A stretch of DNA of 45,108 nucleotides from Candidatus Hodarchaeota archaeon (GCA_048886305.1 JBHLKV010000003.1:1-45108), one strand, 5' to 3'. Positions 1-24,260 are shown, numbered from the stretch's first letter. Notes: a model not told the origin generated them from the letters alone. A program made the numbers and translations.

Positions 1-405
1 GTGTTTAGAAGTTATAGAGAAAGTGGATTCGGAGGAGATCCTGGACATGAACCTGTTTTAAAAAACATTTTAATTAAGGATAGGGATTCAATAGCTATAG
101 AAGTTCCTATTTGGAAGAAGGAAGAATACAAAACCATTACAGGGCATATTGATTTGATTCAAATTGAAAATGGTGTTGTTAAAGTAATTGATTATAAACC
201 AGAAGGAAAATTTTTACTCTCTTTGCCTCAAGTAGCAATGTATGGTTTTTTATTTAAATCTAGGTTGAATATTGAGACGGTAAAATGCGTTTCCTTTAAT
301 AAGGAAGAAGTTTGGGAATATGAACCAAAAATATTATTGACTGAAGTCAAAGAATATTTAATCTCTCATCGAATTGAAGAGAGACCATGGGAAAATTTTA
401 TTTAA
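1..405 (+). CDS. PD-(D/E)xK nuclease superfamily protein, C-terminal fragment (RecB/Cas4-like core; gene continues upstream of the window)
   Basis: The frame is open to the window edge, so the GTG at 1 is not a real start. GHIDLI ... VIDYK (D ... D-x-K) followed by QVAMY (QxxxY) matches the RecB-family nuclease core. There is no C-terminal Cys cluster, so this is not a canonical Fe-S Cas4. Confidence 0.5.
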   Translation: MFRSYRESGFGGDPGHEPVLKNILIKDRDSIAIEVPIWKKEEYKTITGHIDLIQIENGVVKVIDYKPEGKFLLSLPQVAMYGFLFKSRLNIETVKCVSFNKEEVWEYEPKILLTEVKEYLISHRIEERPWENFI

Positions 406-416
406 GGAGTAAGTAT

Positions 417-692
417 TTAGAGTTTTTTTCCCTTTGGTTTAGGGGATTCTGGTTTTTCCTTTGGCTTCACATACCCTTTAAACATGAAATAACATAAAAT
501 TAAGGCTATTAATTCTGTAGCAACACCAAGAGAAGAAATAATTGTGCCATTATATCCAAAATATCTTAATACTATTGCGATACCTAAACCTGAAAATGCT
601 AATATAAATAAAATAAATCCTTTTATGATTTCTAAGAAGGAATCTTTGATAAACACGAGTTCTTTTTTAATCCAAGTAAAAAGTGAAGCCAT
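417..692 (-). CDS. small membrane protein (two hydrophobic helices, Lys/Pro-rich C-terminal tail)
   Basis: 91-aa ORF with an ATG start. FILFILAFSGLGIAIVL and IISSLGVATELIALILCYFMF look transmembrane. It lies 115 nt downstream of the 808..5306 gene pair on the same strand. No family recognised. Confidence 0.4.
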   Translation of the reverse strand: MASLFTWIKKELVFIKDSFLEIIKGFILFILAFSGLGIAIVLRYFGYNGTIISSLGVATELIALILCYFMFKGYVKPKEKPESPKPKGKKL

Positions 693-807: not shown

Positions 808-3003
808 TCACTCACTCCTTTGTTTACTTTTAAATTTAGAATAAAGCGCTTTATCTAACAATTTCCCTATTCTTTGGGCAATTTGTTTACCAATTTCATA
901 TCGTTCGCCATCAAGTAAATTTCTCATTGCTTCTGGAGAGGGATTATCCCCTAACCTTCTAAACAAGACATTTTTTGTAATTTCAATTACGATATCTTTA
1001 ATATTTACATAATCGGGTAATTTAATGCCGGGATTAAAGCTATTGATTTTCTCTACTGCAAATTGGAAAAATTGACTAAATAGCTCTATTGGGTCTCCTT
1101 TTAATTCACTATGAAGTTTTAAATTATCAGTAGCAATTTTTGTATCCTTTTCTTGCCAATATAACTGATTTGGATTGATACCAGGACTAGTTATTCTCAT
1201 GAGGGAACTTGTAATTCTACGTTCTATCCAATTTAAGGTACTTATTTCCTGTTTTTCACGTATTTCTTTCTTTTTTTCTTCTTCTTCTTTTTCTTTAGAT
1301 TTTATTATTTGTTCTACTTTTGATTTACGTTGTTCTTCGAACTCTTCAAACCTTTTGATTAAATCATATCCAATGCAGTAAGAAATTGGTGAGATTAGAT
1401 CTGGCTTTAACTTTAATTGCGAAATGCCGAAATATACATAGCTATTTTTCTCTCGTAATTCCATAATTCCCTGTCTTAATGGAATTCCCATCAATCGTGC
1501 CAATATAAAACCATTGACTAAAAATGGTTGATTATCCGCATTAAATACAATAACTAACTCTTCTTGTCTCTTATTTAATTTTTCTATTACTAATTCCTCT
1601 AACTTAACCTTAACCCATTCTTCAGAATCAGTAGTTCCAAATATTTTTCGTAAAGCTAGAAGAAATAAAGTTTTGTCATTTGAAATTTTAAGATATAGTT
1701 CAATAATTCGACTAAGTTGCCTTAATATTTTTGATAATATATAAAAAAAGATATCTTTCACTAACTTATCCATAATATCTTCAAATTCTAGGACAAATAA
1801 GATATGAGCATAGTTTTTTAATCCTAATTCCTTTAAAAAGATTTTATCAATAACCTGCTTTTTTCTCTGATCAGTTGGATTGATAAGATCATTCTTTGCT
1901 ATACTATATCTGACCAAATTTCTCCTTACTTCTTCAGTAACCGACTCGTCTATATTCATGAGGTAAAGGATATTATGGACTCCATATCTATTTAACGTAT
2001 AGATTAAATCATTAAAACTACATTCATTTAGACTTTGTAGAAAATAAATAAAATCATTTGGATTAATTTTTAATTGTTTAAATAACTCAGATTTTAAGAA
2101 GCTCACAATATTTTGTTCAAATTGTTCATAATTAATTTTTTCTTTAAGCGCATTTTCTATTCTTTTCAGTAGTTCTTTTTTAAGGTTGTTTGTTTCTTTA
2201 AAGATTTTTAATCCAGGAATAGAAATTGGAAACCGATCAAAGTTATAATCAAAGATTTTCCGTTTTATCATTCTAACCGGCATTGCCTGTACCTGAAGTT
2301 CTTTATATGATTTGAATTCAAAATCTTTTCGGATTTTGTCAATCATTCGTCCTAAGGTTGCTAATTCGATAAATTTATCTTCTTTCTCTTCTCTTTCTAA
2401 TTTTTTTTCAATTTCCAGTGATAAATCTTTAAAAGCTGAGCTTTCTTCTAAGATTTCTAATTTAGTTTCTTCAGTTAATCCTATCAAATCCCCTATTAAA
2501 TCATAAAAATAAAAAGGAGGGTATTTTAATATGATTTCTAATAATTCTTGTTCAACTTTTTGTTCAATTTCATTCAGCATTTGCTTCCTTTGAAAGTCTG
2601 GAAGTGTAGATTCTCTTTCTTCGATTAGGAATGATATAAATCTATTCTCTAAATCAAAAATCTTATTTAAAACCCCAATTTCTAAAATAAATGAATCTTT
2701 TAATAACGTACCGACTTCTTCTATTAAAATCTTTTTCTCAATTTGTTCTAAATTTTGTGCTGCCTCAAAGGAAAATTTATCTTGTTCTAAGGTTTCTTTA
2801 ACTCTAATACCTAAATTGTGATAAATGTGAATTACAGCTGTAGCAATTAATAGGTCTTTGAAAGTGGTTTTTTGACTTGTTAATTCGAAAATTTTTTGCT
2901 TATCAGCATCTCTCTTAAAATGGGAAATAATTAAATCTACAGTTTGAAAAAATCTAAATGTACTTTCAACGGCAGTTGTTTTTCTTTTTATCCCACTAAT
3001 CAT
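808..3003 (-). CDS. large uncharacterised all-helical protein (731 aa), translationally coupled to the upstream 768-aa gene
   Basis: Long uninterrupted ORF. I place the start at the ATG at 3003 (M6 of the track ORF), which forms an ATGA start/stop overlap with the TGA (3002..3000) of the upstream gene and follows a GGAG. The sequence is K/E-rich and helical, including KEKEEEEKKKE. No P-loop, nuclease, methylase or metal-binding motif seen. Confidence 0.6.
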   Translation of the reverse strand: MISGIKRKTTAVESTFRFFQTVDLIISHFKRDADKQKIFELTSQKTTFKDLLIATAVIHIYHNLGIRVKETLEQDKFSFEAAQNLEQIEKKILIEEVGTLLKDSFILEIGVLNKIFDLENRFISFLIEERESTLPDFQRKQMLNEIEQKVEQELLEIILKYPPFYFYDLIGDLIGLTEETKLEILEESSAFKDLSLEIEKKLEREEKEDKFIELATLGRMIDKIRKDFEFKSYKELQVQAMPVRMIKRKIFDYNFDRFPISIPGLKIFKETNNLKKELLKRIENALKEKINYEQFEQNIVSFLKSELFKQLKINPNDFIYFLQSLNECSFNDLIYTLNRYGVHNILYLMNIDESVTEEVRRNLVRYSIAKNDLINPTDQRKKQVIDKIFLKELGLKNYAHILFVLEFEDIMDKLVKDIFFYILSKILRQLSRIIELYLKISNDKTLFLLALRKIFGTTDSEEWVKVKLEELVIEKLNKRQEELVIVFNADNQPFLVNGFILARLMGIPLRQGIMELREKNSYVYFGISQLKLKPDLISPISYCIGYDLIKRFEEFEEQRKSKVEQIIKSKEKEEEEKKKEIREKQEISTLNWIERRITSSLMRITSPGINPNQLYWQEKDTKIATDNLKLHSELKGDPIELFSQFFQFAVEKINSFNPGIKLPDYVNIKDIVIEITKNVLFRRLGDNPSPEAMRNLLDGERYEIGKQIAQRIGKLLDKALYSKFKSKQRSE

Positions 3004-5306
3004 AGCTCCTTTAACCACTCCCGATATACTTCTTTAAAATTATCTGCTAATTCAAATCTAGAATTAGTATGCCAAAACTTAAAGCTTAATACGTGAAAAA
3101 GATCTCCCCCAAACAATTCTTTTTCTTCGCTTGTTAAATTGTGTTTTAAAATTAGAGTTAATGGTCTAGGAATCAATTTTGAAAAATATTTTAATTCCAT
3201 CTCTTTGATATAATCATAAAAATGGTCCTCACCATTTAGATTAAAAAAGTTAATAGGAACTTGCTCTTCAAATTGAGGGTTAAGTATGCTCATTTCTTGT
3301 TTGATTCTATTATTAACATACTTCGGAAATTCAGTACTAATATTCATGCTTAAATCATATTGCTTGTAAAAATCAATTAATAAATCCCTTTCCTCAATAT
3401 TCGATATCCGAGCAATATATGTATCCAAAAATTTTAAAAAATGCTCAAACTTCTGCTCATTTGATTCTCTTTCTTCAAAATAGCTAATAAAATCATTGTA
3501 TATCTCGTCTAAAGTCCATTCTTTTCTTTCTTCTAAATTAAAGAATTTTTTGTTATAATCACTTAACCATTCCAAAATATAAGATTTCCAGGTTAAATTT
3601 ATTCCCCCTATTCTTTTTTCTAAAAAGCGATGAAATCTCGTAGCAAAAGTAACTGGATCGGCTATTTCTTTATCAGGTTCTTCTTTGATATACCTATTAA
3701 TTGTTGTATACCTAAGAATATAGCTTAGGAGATAAGATAATTCACTCGAAAATGTCTTAAATCTATCAATATGCTCTCTTATAGTGTTAATATCTTTTTC
3801 CATTTGTATTTCCGCAAAAGACACTAAATCTCCTATCTCTAGTTTTATGTTATCAAAAAATGGCTCTAAATTTGTATTAATTAATCTCCTAAACTCTCTT
3901 ATTATATTTTCTTCATTGAATTTGAGAACTCCTGATAAAACCATTGGATTAACTTCAATTTGGCTAAGAATATGATCTTTAAACTTGTCTATTAATTTCT
4001 GACCAAGGACTTTCGCTGGTTTTTGTTCATCTTCGAATTTTTGTTTTAAATTTTTTGTTAAATCAACAATTAAGGATTTTAGCCTCCTACGCGAGAGATA
4101 TTTTGGAAGAGATGCTTTAACCAAATTCAGACTACTTGTAATAATTTCTGAAAAATAATTAAAGATCGAGCTTAAATCTATTGCTCTTAAGTTTTCTTGC
4201 GCAATTGCTGATTGCTTAATTGTTTTAATCGCTAAATTACTAATATCTTCAAAATCTTCATTTTCAAATTTTGCTTTATTTACAATAAACTGTTTATATT
4301 TTTTTGATAGTTCATCCAGATCTCCAATTTCTCCAGTTGTAAGAAAAGAGTTAGAATATTCAATGAACTTATTCAAATATCTTTCTAAATCAATTAAAAT
4401 TTTATTAATAAAGGAAATTAACGATTTTGCTGGGCAAGGATCATTTAAGTTTTGTATATTTTTTTTAGTATAGTTAATAATGAATGAGATTATTCTATCT
4501 TGAGATTCATCAATTGTACCTGTATTTGCTAAATTAATTAGATTTGTTCCTAACTTTAAGGTTTTATCCACTATAAAATTAGCACTAGGCTCTGATATAG
4601 AATATTTAATATGGTCGATGGATTGCTGCCCCTCATAAGGGCTTTTTAGTCTATCGAATTTTGAATTGAAAAGATTAATCTCATATGGTCGCTTGTGTAA
4701 TAATATATCTACATCTGATTTGACTCTTGCATATGTATTCAACATTTCTTTTTCTGTTGGAAGGGAAGCACTTATACCGATTAATTTTTTATTCCATTTA
4801 TCTTCAATTATTTCTCCAAAGAGTTTTTTGCTGAATCTAGTGGCAAATCTTTTATATACCTGTTGTTTGTCATCATTTTTTAAATCAGGTCGATCGGTAA
4901 ATTCTTCTACTTCAAAAAATAATTTACTTATCTTATTTATCGCTTCATGAGATTTATGGGCATCTAAATATCCCGTTTCAGGCTTTAATGCAAGTAATAA
5001 ACTTTCACAGTCTTTATATTTACCAGGTATGAAAATCATTGATTTTGGAAAAATATTTACTCGAGCACTTTTCTCATCGAGATTATACAATTCAAATTCG
5101 ATACTAAAAACTTCTGAACCAGTATAATCTCTTAAAATTGCATTATACATCCTTAAATATTCTATAACTCCCTGGGAAAGTTCATTAACTTTTTCTCGAG
5201 TTAATTTTCCCGGACCAATTACATCTCCTACAATGATGTCGTTTGGAGAAGAATATCCATATATTAGTGAAAATTGATAATTGATTGATTCTCGTGTAGT
5301 AATCAT
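3000..5306 (-). CDS. large uncharacterised protein (768 aa): alpha/beta N-terminal domain with a longin/roadblock-like strand-helix pattern, then about 600 aa of helical sequence
   Basis: Long ORF with an ATG start. N-terminus: YQFSLIYGY / IIVGDVIGP (two strands), TREKVNELSQGVIEYLRMYNAILRDY (helix), EVFSIEFELY / ARVNIFPKSMIFIPG (strands). The rest is helical. No enzymatic motif recognised. The fold call is pattern-based only. Confidence 0.55.
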   Translation of the reverse strand: MITTRESINYQFSLIYGYSSPNDIIVGDVIGPGKLTREKVNELSQGVIEYLRMYNAILRDYTGSEVFSIEFELYNLDEKSARVNIFPKSMIFIPGKYKDCESLLLALKPETGYLDAHKSHEAINKISKLFFEVEEFTDRPDLKNDDKQQVYKRFATRFSKKLFGEIIEDKWNKKLIGISASLPTEKEMLNTYARVKSDVDILLHKRPYEINLFNSKFDRLKSPYEGQQSIDHIKYSISEPSANFIVDKTLKLGTNLINLANTGTIDESQDRIISFIINYTKKNIQNLNDPCPAKSLISFINKILIDLERYLNKFIEYSNSFLTTGEIGDLDELSKKYKQFIVNKAKFENEDFEDISNLAIKTIKQSAIAQENLRAIDLSSIFNYFSEIITSSLNLVKASLPKYLSRRRLKSLIVDLTKNLKQKFEDEQKPAKVLGQKLIDKFKDHILSQIEVNPMVLSGVLKFNEENIIREFRRLINTNLEPFFDNIKLEIGDLVSFAEIQMEKDINTIREHIDRFKTFSSELSYLLSYILRYTTINRYIKEEPDKEIADPVTFATRFHRFLEKRIGGINLTWKSYILEWLSDYNKKFFNLEERKEWTLDEIYNDFISYFEERESNEQKFEHFLKFLDTYIARISNIEERDLLIDFYKQYDLSMNISTEFPKYVNNRIKQEMSILNPQFEEQVPINFFNLNGEDHFYDYIKEMELKYFSKLIPRPLTLILKHNLTSEEKELFGGDLFHVLSFKFWHTNSRFELADNFKEVYREWLKEL

Positions 5307-5480
5307 AACCTAATTAAACTAAAACTATTATAATTCTTGCTGAAATAGCAAATAAATTTAGGAATTATTTTTAATATTTTTAAATTTATATATTATTAAA
5401 ATTTACTTTTGAATAGTAAATAAATTAATTTTATAAAAATTTATATTTAAAATTCTAATAAATAAGTTAGATGGAAAAAA

Positions 5481-6158
5481 TTGTCAGAGATCCTTCTTAA
5501 TCAACTTATAGAGAAATTGGATGAGGTACTCTTAGGAAGAAGAGATATTGTATCTGAGATTGAAAAATTAAAAGATGCAATAGAAAAGATTCAGAAAAAG
5601 AAAAAGGATAATATAGGAAGTCAAATCATGAATACTGTAAATGAAATTAAAGTATTTATGTCGAAATCAACCAATGTTTTATATGAACTAAATAATAATA
5701 TGAAAAATTTGCAATATTTAATAAATTCCCTTAATAATGTTTTTGACACAATTATAAATTCAAAAACTATCCAAGAATCGTTTACGAATAGTAAATTTTC
5801 ACTAATCCCTCAAAAACCTGAGCCCTTACCTCGATATGAAAGTAACTTGCCTACTCAGATAATATCTCAAAGTGAATCAATAACACCACCACCACATGTA
5901 CCAGAAAAACCTATTGAAAATGTAGGGGATTCAGATTTTAATTTAATTCTTTCTGTCGCTAAATCAAATAATCCCGCAGTAGAAATCGCAACAATGCTAG
6001 AAAAAATCAGAACTAAATTAGAAAATGAAAATCCTTTAAATCCCATCTTATTTGAATTAAGCATGGAATCAAGACGACTAAAATCATTAGGAAATATACC
6101 ACTTGATCCACATAATTTACAAATTCTAATTGAGAAATTACATAAATGGATTGGATAG
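5481..6158 (+). CDS. coiled-coil protein with a Pro-rich linker and a small helical C-terminal domain (uncharacterised)
   Basis: 225-aa ORF starting at the first possible start (TTG), 15 nt after an in-frame stop. It has N-terminal heptad-like sequence (LIEKLDEVLL...IEKLKDAIEKIQKKKK), then PQKPEPLP...TPPPHVPEKP, then a helical tail. It is divergent from the 808..5306 operon and directly upstream of the Roadblock gene. Confidence 0.5.
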   Translation: MSEILLNQLIEKLDEVLLGRRDIVSEIEKLKDAIEKIQKKKKDNIGSQIMNTVNEIKVFMSKSTNVLYELNNNMKNLQYLINSLNNVFDTIINSKTIQESFTNSKFSLIPQKPEPLPRYESNLPTQIISQSESITPPPHVPEKPIENVGDSDFNLILSVAKSNNPAVEIATMLEKIRTKLENENPLNPILFELSMESRRLKSLGNIPLDPHNLQILIEKLHKWIG

Positions 6159-6288
6159 CAATTGAAAATTATGGAATTTTATTTAAAATAAATTTTTTCT
6201 TAAAGAAAATAAATAAATAAATGGATTTTAATTAATTTAATATAAGCATTATCTAAAATATTATAAATTTTCTAGAAGGTGTAGGCTT

Positions 6289-6693
6289 ATACAATTTGGA
6301 TCTGATTTAGGGATTAACCATGAAGATATAGAAAAAATAAGTCCGCAAATCACATTTATAACATCTAATGCAGATATAGAAGCAATCGCACTTGTAAGTG
6401 TAGAAGGTTATCAAATAGCCTTTTCTGCGTTGCCCCAATATCAGGTAGATGGTGATCAATTTTGTGGACTGGCCAGTGCTTTATTAATGACTGGAAGATC
6501 AACAATTCAAACTTTATTCCAAGAAGATATAACTGAAATAATTGTAAGGGCTGAGAATGGATATATTGTGGTAACAAATGCAGGACGCTTAGTCATTGTT
6601 TGTGCAGGGACAATTATTGATACTTTAATGAAAACGGTAAAAGTCATGCGAATAGCAGCAAAGAATCTTTATAAAATCTTTGAAGGGCGATAA
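6289..6693 (+). CDS. Roadblock/LC7 (MglB-like) domain protein, probably initiated at a non-canonical ATA
   Basis: Roadblock-like core: IEAIALVSVEGYQIAFS ... GLASALLMTG ... ITEIIVRAENGYIVVTNAGRLVIVC. The track ORF (TTG 6430) cuts off the first helix and strand. The frame is open back to the stop at 6238..6240 with no ATG, GTG or TTG in between. AGGTG (6277..6281) lies 7 nt upstream of the in-frame ATA at 6289, giving a normal 134-aa Roadblock. Confidence 0.6.
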   Translation: MQFGSDLGINHEDIEKISPQITFITSNADIEAIALVSVEGYQIAFSALPQYQVDGDQFCGLASALLMTGRSTIQTLFQEDITEIIVRAENGYIVVTNAGRLVIVCAGTIIDTLMKTVKVMRIAAKNLYKIFEGR

Positions 6694-23123: not shown

Positions 23124-24260
23124 TTATTTTGACTTATCTTTTTTGGATTCTTTAGGTAATAATTTTCTCATCCACTCTGGAAAGGCAGTAGTTATACGTA
23201 GATTTGTTTTTAAAACAACATACCGTTCATTATTATAATTTAACTCTTCGATTACATCATATTCTTTTAAATATTCTATGTTTTCCATTAGAGAATCTAA
23301 AGTTTTCTTAGACAATAATTTAGGTAATTTATCTCTTGAAATTAAACTATTGCGTAATTCAGAAAGAACATTATACTTTTTAGAATCTGCCATTATTTGA
23401 AATAAAATATAGGAATCTTTTTTTAGCTCTGCTTCTTTCTTTTTTTCATATTCACTAAAATATTCTTGAACCTTTGGAAGTAGCAAATCTATTAACTCTG
23501 GTTTGTCATCAATATATTCTATTACACTATCGGGTGGAATTCTCTCTGCATTTACTTCTTTTAATAGAAGTACATACTTTTCTACTAAGCCAATTTGATT
23601 TATAATAAGAATTTGCTTCTCAACCAATGTATTGATTATTTCTTCGAATTCTTTATTAGGAAAATTTTCAATAAACCATTCTTTTAGTTCTTCTAGTTCT
23701 ACCGGACCTTTTGAGAGTTTTTCTAAGGTTTTAAAAATATGCTCATTATTTATTAGAATTGCTATTTTCTGTTCTTCAGTTTTTTCTCGTGTTTCTTCCA
23801 TTATTGCCCAATATAGGTTCTTTACCCATGCTTTTATTAAAGAATTGTTTTTTATTATCTTTTCAACATCTTCTTCATGATAGTCTTTCTCATTTATGTA
23901 AAAACCTGTAAAGATCTCCTCATTTGATTGTAAACTTTCTGAAAATTCTGTACACAAATTAGCAATAATTTCCTCAATCGAAGGTGCAATTTGTTGATCA
24001 AGTATTACTGAAAACATTAACATTTCCTTATTACCACGAGCCCAATCAGAGTGAATTTCAAAATAATAATTTAATGATTTTAAATTTTCAAAAGAGTGTG
24101 TAAAAAAACCTTCATTAAATTGTTGGTCCATAATATTAGCTATTTTAACTTCTAATTCCTTCTCTAACGTATCTTTGGGATAAGAATAGAATATTAAGGG
24201 CCCAATCTTCCTATGGAAATAAGAAAGCGTAACGGTTGTTTTCAAATAATGAATCTCCAT
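23124..24260 (-). CDS. longin-domain plus tandem winged-helix protein, NPRL2/Npr2-like (GATOR1-subunit-like), tentative
   Basis: 378 aa (human NPRL2 is 380 aa as I recall). The N-terminus TLSYFHRKIGPLIFYSYPKD matches remembered NPRL2 [20 protein letters not shown] at F15, H16, G20, P21, I23, Y25, P28 and D30. WARGN (R75) lines up with NPRL2 YSRN (R78, the Arg finger). Two C-terminal wH-like units follow (IFKTLEKLSKGPVELEEL...LVEKQILIINQIGLVEKYVLL and YNVLSELRNS...YLKEYDVIEELNYNNERYVVL). Confidence 0.5.
   Translation of the reverse strand: MEIHYLKTTVTLSYFHRKIGPLIFYSYPKDTLEKELEVKIANIMDQQFNEGFFTHSFENLKSLNYYFEIHSDWARGNKEMLMFSVILDQQIAPSIEEIIANLCTEFSESLQSNEEIFTGFYINEKDYHEEDVEKIIKNNSLIKAWVKNLYWAIMEETREKTEEQKIAILINNEHIFKTLEKLSKGPVELEELKEWFIENFPNKEFEEIINTLVEKQILIINQIGLVEKYVLLLKEVNAERIPPDSVIEYIDDKPELIDLLLPKVQEYFSEYEKKKEAELKKDSYILFQIMADSKKYNVLSELRNSLISRDKLPKLLSKKTLDSLMENIEYLKEYDVIEELNYNNERYVVLKTNLRITTAFPEWMRKLLPKESKKDKSK

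Follow-up and report, generated by a model that had tools for sequence, protein, structure and literature searches.

What is encoded by two large, tightly packed archaeal genes that match no entry in the common protein family databases? The question is raised by a stretch of 45,108 nucleotides (nt) from Candidatus Hodarchaeota archaeon (GCA_048886305.1 JBHLKV010000003.1:1-45108), hereafter the window, in which two neighboring minus-strand genes, here called A and B, were described by a first-pass annotation as a translationally coupled pair of large orphan proteins, lacking enzymatic motifs and probably forming a heteromeric complex. We tentatively propose that A and B assemble into a conserved, soluble two-subunit complex of ~180 kDa that is confined to certain Asgard lineages and would act as a platform for partner proteins, a reading that may well be correct and that we stop short of calling probable.

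The organization of the pair can be read directly from the DNA (Table 1). The two open reading frames have the lengths first reported, 768 and 731 amino acids (aa), and at their minus-strand junction, AAAGGAGCTATGATT, the start codon of B (ATG, 3003..3001) runs into the stop codon of A (TGA, 3002..3000), giving ATGA at 3000..3003. An alternative GTG start of B at 3018 would lengthen the product to 736 aa. AGGAG combined with an ATGA stop/start overlap is the classic layout of translational coupling, and here an AGGAG is positioned 3 to 7 nt 5' of the ATG of B, within the end of A, so that the overlap and this signal together bear out a single coupled operon. With ratios of nonsynonymous to synonymous substitution (dN/dS) of 0.13-0.17 for A and 0.09-0.12 for B in comparison to six orthologous loci, both are genuine coding genes under purifying selection. 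No membrane-spanning hydrophobic segment was detected in either protein by transmembrane (TM) prediction. In one related locus (L030, G132:C6, 7809..12524) A and B lie in the same frame, parted by one TAG and 12 nt, forming an open frame of 1579 aa with a single stop.

Sequence searches with single sequences and with profiles gave nothing significant for A or B in Pfam, NCBIfam or PDB chains; the absence of a recognizable enzymatic motif therefore stands, and it is unlikely that the complex is an enzyme. The two proteins are also unrelated to each other by BLASTP and hhalign. Among 31 members of the A family, none matched the Pfam longin, sedlin, sybindin, Mon1, folliculin or NPR2 families at E up to 1, Robl_LC7 was likewise without a match in A among the family members searched, and the comparison of A with the NPRL2-like family encoded in the same window gave an hhalign probability of 0.2%. 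PADLOC and PHROGs returned zero families for A, B, the small two-TM protein encoded downstream of B and the coiled-coil protein encoded upstream of A. The orphan label, in contrast, proved wrong, as hundreds of homologues were found. A collection of 5.8 billion proteins contains 296 relatives of A and 359 of B, the named ones mostly from Lokiarchaeota/Promethearchaeota, and within Lokiarchaeia the relatives of A share 60-91% identity and hardly vary in length (764 to 768 aa). Among 1.84 billion cluster representatives, searched exhaustively, only 88 clusters belonged to A, which is therefore a narrow family.

The distribution of both genes was surveyed in 400 Asgard genomes grouped in families, and their patterns of presence and absence are nearly identical. 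In the family of the window (f1) A occurs in 121/134 genomes and B in 120/134; both are present throughout the family of the cultured species (f3, 14/14 each), f4 (4/4 each) and f7 (2/2 each), while Jordarchaeia (f20) have A in 5/5 and B in 4/5 genomes and Freyarchaeota (f21) have A in 3/6 and B in 5/6. The pair is also found in Thorarchaeia (Thorarchaeota, family f31), and neither gene was detected in families f5, f6, f8-f19 and f22-f29. For the 268 genomes at least 85% complete, the profile search with B was bimodal: 175 matched, nearly all with E below 1e-100, and the remaining families gave no match, not even a weak one. In 12 loci of seven families B comes after A, and the gap or overlap between them is at most 20 nt. 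The sole unlinked lineage is f7, where the genes lie on separate contigs in both genomes (G128, C9:68240-70402 and C5:138412-140808; G129, C153 and C165) and both are retained; that they persist together without being linked speaks for a functional dependence of A and B. Overall, the two genes occur together and adjacent, A ahead of B, in Loki-, Thor-, Frey- and Jordarchaeia, which confirms their conservation as a pair. There is usually one copy per genome, with a second in a few, and the syntenic place is fixed.

The AlphaFold2 model of A (31-sequence alignment) reaches a predicted local distance difference test (pLDDT) of 88.9 and a predicted template modeling score (pTM) of 0.87. In the N-terminal head, which is among the best conserved parts of the protein, DSSP assigns strands at 13-19, 25-30, 64-75, 89-97 and 100-108 and helices at 37-62, 116-137 and 144-167 (pLDDT 86-95). 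This beta-beta-alpha-beta-beta-beta-alpha-alpha order with a five-stranded sheet is the longin order. A Roadblock/LC7 fold was rejected for the head, which starts strand-strand-long helix and does not follow the order alpha-beta-beta-alpha-beta-beta-beta. Foldseek against the PDB found no match to the model at E 0.001 or better and none that was global, and its rows of notable probability are longin proteins: TRAPPII 7u06_D (0.89), the Lokiarchaeal Roadblock-Longin protein 8yqg_A (0.69) and FNIP2 (0.63). In the VIA structural search, which is independent of Foldseek and covers 48,161 chains, the top match was the Mon1-Ccz1 longin 5ldd_E, with Z 7.8, a root-mean-square deviation (rmsd) of 3.6 Å and 139/165 residues aligned, accompanied by two further matches of the Mon1-Ccz1 class, 9rs6_B (Z 7.6) and human MON1A-CCZ1 (9lol_A, Z 6.8). 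Lower scores, there or in a second look at the model, came from 8yqg_A (Z 6.5), Fuzzy-Inturned (Z 6.0-6.2), FNIP2 (Z 6.0-6.1), FLCN and CPLANE (Z 5.4 each), TRAPP subunits (Z 4.5-5.3), Sec22b (Z 5.0), sedlin (Z 4.9), NPRL (Z 4.6), Ykt6 (Z 4.5) and LAMTOR (Z 4.2-4.6). More than 20 different longin entries cover residues about 8-175 (Z 4.1-7.8, rmsd 3.4-5.3, 115-146 residues aligned), all below Z 8. Although each score is unconvincing alone, we accept a longin-type fold because the class of the matches is consistent and the topology is exact. A is thus predicted to carry an N-terminal longin-type domain by matches that are weak (Z 4 to 7.8) but consistent, in agreement with the longin/roadblock-like alpha/beta unit recognized by the first-pass annotation, and the mostly helical nature that it ascribed to the remainder of both proteins is also seen in the models.

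Beyond the head, A consists largely of a helical array of about 20 helices that gave only generic helical-bundle matches in VIA (Z up to 7.7). The three strands near its C-terminus, where P715 is invariant and N756 nearly so, may form a second small alpha/beta lobe together with the hairpin at residues 190-219. Both ends of A are covered, weakly, by TagF chains (9t0n, Z 6.0, rmsd 6.2; 6iz8_A, Z 4.9; 2qnu_B, Z 4.7). The only clusters recovered by shape from the ESM Atlas, two unnamed Asgard ones (344 and 389 aa), likewise span both ends, with template modeling (TM) scores of 0.50 and 0.45. These alignments weakly hint that the head and the C-terminal strands could form one unit of two lobes, into which the helical array is inserted. 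A DENN/TagF-like module, in which a longin precedes an alpha/beta DENN core and a helical d-DENN, is a possible reading of these low-scoring alignments. In Frey- and Jordarchaeia A reaches 870-914 aa owing to an additional coiled-coil stretch.

B is modeled as helical throughout (22 sequences; pLDDT 85.9, pTM 0.73); its DSSP summary contains no strand of three or more residues, and no longin domain is present. Its most conserved stretch is residues 406-510. The long helix at residues 542-603, half of which is E, K, R or D, has a dip in pLDDT at 580-590 and resembles an ER/K single alpha-helix spacer, a role that it may share. No structural match to B was found, the best Foldseek E being 0.13 and the best VIA Z 6.3, which is background level, and a shape search of the ESM Atlas gave TM-scores below 0.4. 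Tether, coat, BAR and SMC folds were missing from the best matches of both the A and the B models; CATCHR or other helical tethers and HEAT/ARM solenoids were missing too, with the proviso that a domain match may be overlooked in models of more than 400 residues. The length of B varies between lineages. Most homologues have ~800 aa, with an insert of ~70 residues at a place corresponding to about 1830..1870 in the window (B residues about 380-395), which is missing in the sub-clade of the window and some others (724-743 aa) without any change in the length of A. In Thor-, Frey- and Jordarchaeia and in family f30, B carries a zinc-ribbon-like insert (CxxC ... CPxH; Cys2-Cys-His) after a conserved W...D motif (L021, L022, L023, L025; alignment positions 695-715). 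Lokiarchaeia B has no zinc ribbon, which was either lost or never present.

The suggestion that A and B form a heteromer is supported by complex prediction. Full-length A was combined with B residues 395-626, a 232-residue fragment representing the most conserved stretch, and three runs gave values of the interface score ipSAE of 0.00, 0.67 and 0.69, the median of 0.67 comparing with 0.00 for the best of three controls. The mark applied to this score is reached by 58/80 solved complexes and 2/110 mismatched pairs. The pLDDT of the partner ranged from 45 to 74, and the agreement of contacts between runs was reported only as "at least 0%". In the best run, residues 129-167 of A are predicted to contact B residues 462-470 and 523-543. 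Several residues at this putative interface are well conserved: E132 (27/31 family members), R157 (28/31) and G164 (23/31) in A, and E470 (21/22), Y542 (21/22), S541 (20/22) and Y or F at 524 (22/22) in B. The conservation of B E470, Y524, S541 and Y542 holds phylum-wide. Binding between A and B is therefore a model-supported prediction.

Table 1. Features of the A-B locus and its surroundings, in window coordinates.
Feature	Position	Strand	Description	Basis
Gene A	3000..5306	-	768 aa, ATG start, 90.8 kDa, soluble	Open reading frame and translation
Gene B	808..3003	-	731 aa from ATG at 3003, 86.6 kDa, all-alpha, soluble	Open reading frame and translation
Coupling signal	3000..3010	-	AGGAG (3006..3010), then ATGA stop/start overlap (3000..3003)	Direct sequence reading
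Longin-type head of A	4797..5279	-	Residues about 10-170	DSSP on AlphaFold2 model and structural matches
Helices alpha2/alpha3 of A head	4806..4922	-	Residues 129-167, predicted contact surface for B	Best run of complex prediction
Beta-hairpin of A	4650..4739	-	Residues 190-219	DSSP
Helical array of A	3192..4631	-	Residues 226-705 (~480), about 20 helices	AlphaFold2 model
C-terminal strands of A	3042..3176	-	Residues 711-755, three strands	DSSP
Conserved core of B	1375..1629	-	Residues 459-543, predicted contact surface for A	Conservation and complex prediction
Long charged helix of B	1195..1380	-	Residues 542-603 (62), half E/K/R/D	DSSP, composition
Divergent control region	5307..5480	.	174 nt, AT-rich, between A and coiled-coil/Roadblock genes	Sequence
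Coiled-coil gene	5481..6158	+	225 aa, divergent from A	Sequence
Roadblock/LC7 gene	6241..6693	+	Divergent from A, start uncertain	Pfam Robl_LC7, E 3.8e-7
Two-TM hairpin protein gene	417..692	-	91 aa, K/E/P-rich tail, 115 nt downstream of B	TM prediction
PD-(D/E)XK nuclease-like gene	1..405	+	Convergent to B	Pfam match at/below cut-off

How might such a complex work? Both proteins would be translated from one mRNA, with the ribosome that ends A restarting at the overlapping ATG of B, aided by the AGGAG, and this coupled restart should favor equal amounts of the two. The helical face of the A head (alpha2/alpha3, including E132 and R157) would then grip the core of B through its helix 459-486 and segment 519-543, including E470 and Y542, and the sheet side of the longin would stay outside the confidently predicted contacts. 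A large helical scaffold would make up the remainder, formed by the 480-residue array of A together with the bundles of B, its long charged helix among them. In Lokiarchaeales the complex probably sits at the cytoplasmic face of the membrane, because a two-TM hairpin protein is encoded by the gene that follows in this order. The analogy of other longin and Roadblock platforms points, as the most likely function, to a platform on which a small GTPase or Roadblock partner would be docked or regulated.

Comparison with known longin and helical systems reveals several partial likenesses. The tri-longin guanine nucleotide exchange factors for Rab GTPases (RabGEFs) have three longin domains per subunit, of which the first ones pair to form the GTPase site. 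Mon1-Ccz1, Fuzzy-Inturned/CPLANE and BLOC-3 are, like A and B, built from two large subunits made together, and the best match of the A head is to Mon1-Ccz1; however, A has one longin and B none, the A head is predicted to bind a helical bundle, and there is no sequence similarity, so that the pair does not belong to this group. FLCN-FNIP, NPRL2-NPRL3 of GATOR1 and C9orf72-SMCR8 are longin-headed heterodimers acting at membranes, and FNIP2, FLCN and NPRL match A at Z 4.6-6.1. In this group a GP motif before strand 2, next to the arginine finger, marks the catalytic longins of GTPase-activating proteins (GAPs) (PMC12290439). The motif is missing from its defining place in 28/31 A members, and A has S-P-N-D before strand 2, whereas G20-P21 is invariant in the NPRL2-like family encoded in the window. 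A G-P-G does follow strand 2 of A in Lokiarchaeia, mainly in f1, with GIG, GVG, SPG or nothing outside f1. The first 115 residues of the A head, as aligned, showed no conserved arginine; the sole near-invariant one, R157, is part of helix alpha3, where B is predicted to bind. DENN or winged-helix lobes were not recognized in A. Membership of the longin GAPs was rejected given that A lacks the GP motif, B offers no pairing longin, and A and B are unrelated at profile level. In the adaptor and coat half-complexes of AP and COPI, a large alpha-solenoid subunit holds a longin subunit; the longin of A is likewise predicted to rest on a helical partner of large size, and in Jordarchaeia a HEAT/Adaptin_N gene is coupled to B. 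Nevertheless, B is no regular HEAT/ARM solenoid and has no adaptin or coatomer match, the longin of A is fused to a 600-residue body of its own, and the HEAT gene is found in one class only. Roadblock/MglB and Ragulator fall in the same broad structural class, with a conserved Roadblock neighbor in f1 and LAMTOR matches at Z 4.2-4.6, but the order in A is strand-strand-helix and not helix-strand-strand, and Lokiarchaeia have no adjacent GTPase gene. The pair is at most "like" a longin platform, and it is a member of no described complex.

The surroundings of the pair were as first described, with divergent coiled-coil and Roadblock genes beyond A and a small two-TM gene downstream of B, and their conservation differs between lineages; no companion besides A and B themselves is conserved in all of them. 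A gene for a protein of 86-103 aa with a charged tail comes after B, in the same orientation, in the window and in 7/7 Lokiarchaeales loci examined (f1 and f3); it encodes two predicted TM segments in six loci and three in two, and is absent from the Thor-, Frey- and Jordarchaeia loci. AT-rich, TATA-like stretches 5' of the gene suggest that it may have its own promoter. All f1 loci examined have the Roadblock gene divergent from A, and outside f1 it is not adjacent. Across the f1 loci the Roadblock protein is 65-99% identical where A is 42-91% identical: 87-99% within the genus and in L031 (A 62-91%), and 65-78% in L032 and L033 (A 42-48%). Alignments with its relatives start at about residue 12 of the open frame, and use of the first canonical start, TTG at 6430, would remove the conserved N-terminus. 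The 225-aa coiled-coil gene is restricted to the sub-clade of the window, the same clade that has the short 731-aa B, and a 413-aa coiled-coil gene with weak end similarity (E 3e-6 and 2e-4) is divergent from A in f7 (L028:10575-11816). PD-(D/E)XK nuclease-like genes are convergent to B in f1 and f3, with a tandem pair in f3 (L026:13385-15030; L029:13181-14909; L027:3953-5672).

Other lineages have other companions. In five Frey-type loci B is followed by a 4-HFC-P synthase gene and then an Arf/Ras-type GTPase gene (L021:5942-6649), and in four Jordarchaeia loci a gene for a HEAT-repeat protein (Adaptin_N, 62 bits; cut-off 37) is translationally coupled to B, its 404-aa frame overlapping the stop of B (L022:12812-14026). 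Roadblock proteins, small GTPases and adaptin-like HEAT proteins belong to the vocabulary of GTPase-controlled membranes, and the Roadblock gene of f1, the GTPase gene of Freyarchaeota and the HEAT/adaptin-like gene of Jordarchaeia are contextual hints at the GTPase-regulator or tether role on which the first-pass annotation had speculated. We treat these companions as hints only, because each is a single-clade observation. The NPRL2-like longin gene of the window lies at 23124..24260 on the minus strand, and in many related genomes such a gene is, judging by locus tags, about 5 to 25 genes from A-B (for example ACFE9Q_05510 vs. 05535/05540, and KAV01_03035 vs. 03005/03010).

Several observations weigh against the platform reading. 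No sequence profile ties A to any longin family, and all longin matches stay under Z 8, where common arrangements score too. Binding rests on one prediction with a fragment of B, of which one run in three failed (0.00, partner pLDDT 45). There is no third partner across lineages, as the Roadblock, GTPase, HEAT and two-TM genes each belong to a single clade, and the neighbors in Thorarchaeia are housekeeping genes encoding CutA1, a metallo-beta-lactamase and a DHDPS/Fae fusion. Furthermore, 11 f1 genomes, two of them single-contig assemblies, are without both genes, and the pair is therefore dispensable there and not essential everywhere. Five same-genus genomes without A and B (G179, G184, G188, G189 and G194) are also without the orthologous Roadblock and trpB2 genes, their best Roadblock match being only 31-35% identical; this joint loss looks like the loss of a block or a divergent clade and is therefore not evidence of a functional link. 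It is also conceivable that A and B are co-transcribed without binding each other, the predicted interface being a docking artifact of an exposed helical fragment of B. The zero score of the run with a poorly folded partner would fit this explanation, as would the use of a fragment and of shallow alignments, but the controls scored 0.00, the predicted interface residues are conserved, and the tight coupling goes along with a phyletic pattern shared over four classes and maintained even without linkage in f7. We consider this explanation decidedly improbable.

A different function for a genuine A-B complex must also be considered. It could be a structural or mechanical scaffold that shapes membranes, supports protrusions or tethers, with the longin as only the joint and no part in GTPase signaling. 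Indeed, the predicted use of the longin head is to hold B; helices dominate both proteins, among them a long, charged one of the type found in spacers; Loki- and Thorarchaeia have no linked GTPase gene; A is missing the GP motif of catalytic longins; and Lokiarchaeales have the two-TM neighbor. Against this, there is no match to CATCHR, BAR, a spectrin-like rod or a coat solenoid, all matches being generic and below Z 8, and Roadblock (f1) and GTPase (Freyarchaeota) genes are found nearby. In addition, the sheet side of the longin, itself conserved, is free of confidently predicted contacts, which suggests a further partner. On balance a purely mechanical scaffold seems somewhat unlikely. An action on nucleic acids or chromatin, for instance as a repair or segregation scaffold working with the adjoining PD-(D/E)XK nuclease-like genes, appears very improbable. 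In its favor, f1 and f3 have these genes convergent to B, with a duplication in f3, a zinc-ribbon insert is present in B of Thor-, Frey- and Jordarchaeia, and chromosome mechanics often involves long helical proteins; however, the nuclease match scores 21-23 bits against a Pfam cut-off of 22 and lies on the opposite strand, such genes are unlinked outside Lokiarchaeales, the zinc ribbon is missing in Lokiarchaeia, and no ATPase, SMC, kleisin or DNA-binding fold was matched. Absence from some close relatives, the unassigned function and the adjoining nuclease-like genes could even recall an anti-virus defense or mobile-element module. This is barely credible for a pair without PADLOC or PHROGs matches or nearby mobile-element genes, which is usually present in one copy in fixed synteny, is 60-90% identical across the family and is under strong purifying selection.

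Family f3 includes the cultured species. Orthologues of A and B are DSAG12_00801/00802 in Promethearchaeum syntrophicum MK-D1 and NEF87_002840/002841 in Lokiarchaeum ossiferum, and K9W44_02310 is the A orthologue in Harpocratesius repetitus. The pair is transcribed in P. syntrophicum, with 163, 200 and 150 reads per kilobase per million mapped reads (RPKM) for DSAG12_00801, DSAG12_00802 and the next small gene, DSAG12_00803, respectively, values within the range of the neighboring genes, and none of the three bears the eukaryotic signature protein flag (Imachi et al., 2020; PMC7015854, Supplementary Table 3). For the DNA of the window itself, the sequencing runs listed are DNA runs of sediment metagenomes, with no RNA run among them. 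The MK-D1 nuclease-like genes DSAG12_00804/00805 have RPKM of 190 and 197. The locus tags and accessions of the orthologues are not mentioned in the main text of searchable papers, and the supplements of PMC9834061 contain nothing on them.

The pair is ancient within part of the Asgard phylum and unnamed in the searchable literature. It spans 4.5 kb and is found in the two model cultures as well as in the majority of Loki- and Thorarchaeia genomes, and conserved machinery of this kind, found only in Asgard archaea, receives little attention in comparison to the proteins that they share with eukaryotes. The longin fold is a platform in many eukaryotic membrane-traffic GTPase regulators, and here it is joined to an architecture seen nowhere else. 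The partners of A-B would reveal what longins do in cells without an endomembrane system, and the named orthologues and predicted contact residues make the pair directly testable. A bolder version of the platform reading, in which A-B is an Asgard-invented, membrane-anchored longin machine of ~180 kDa that has a single longin head clamped to a novel helical partner, recruits or regulates Asgard small GTPases or Roadblock proteins and has no eukaryotic or bacterial counterpart, is in our view unlikely. If true, it would represent an independent archaeal solution to GTPase-controlled membrane organization.

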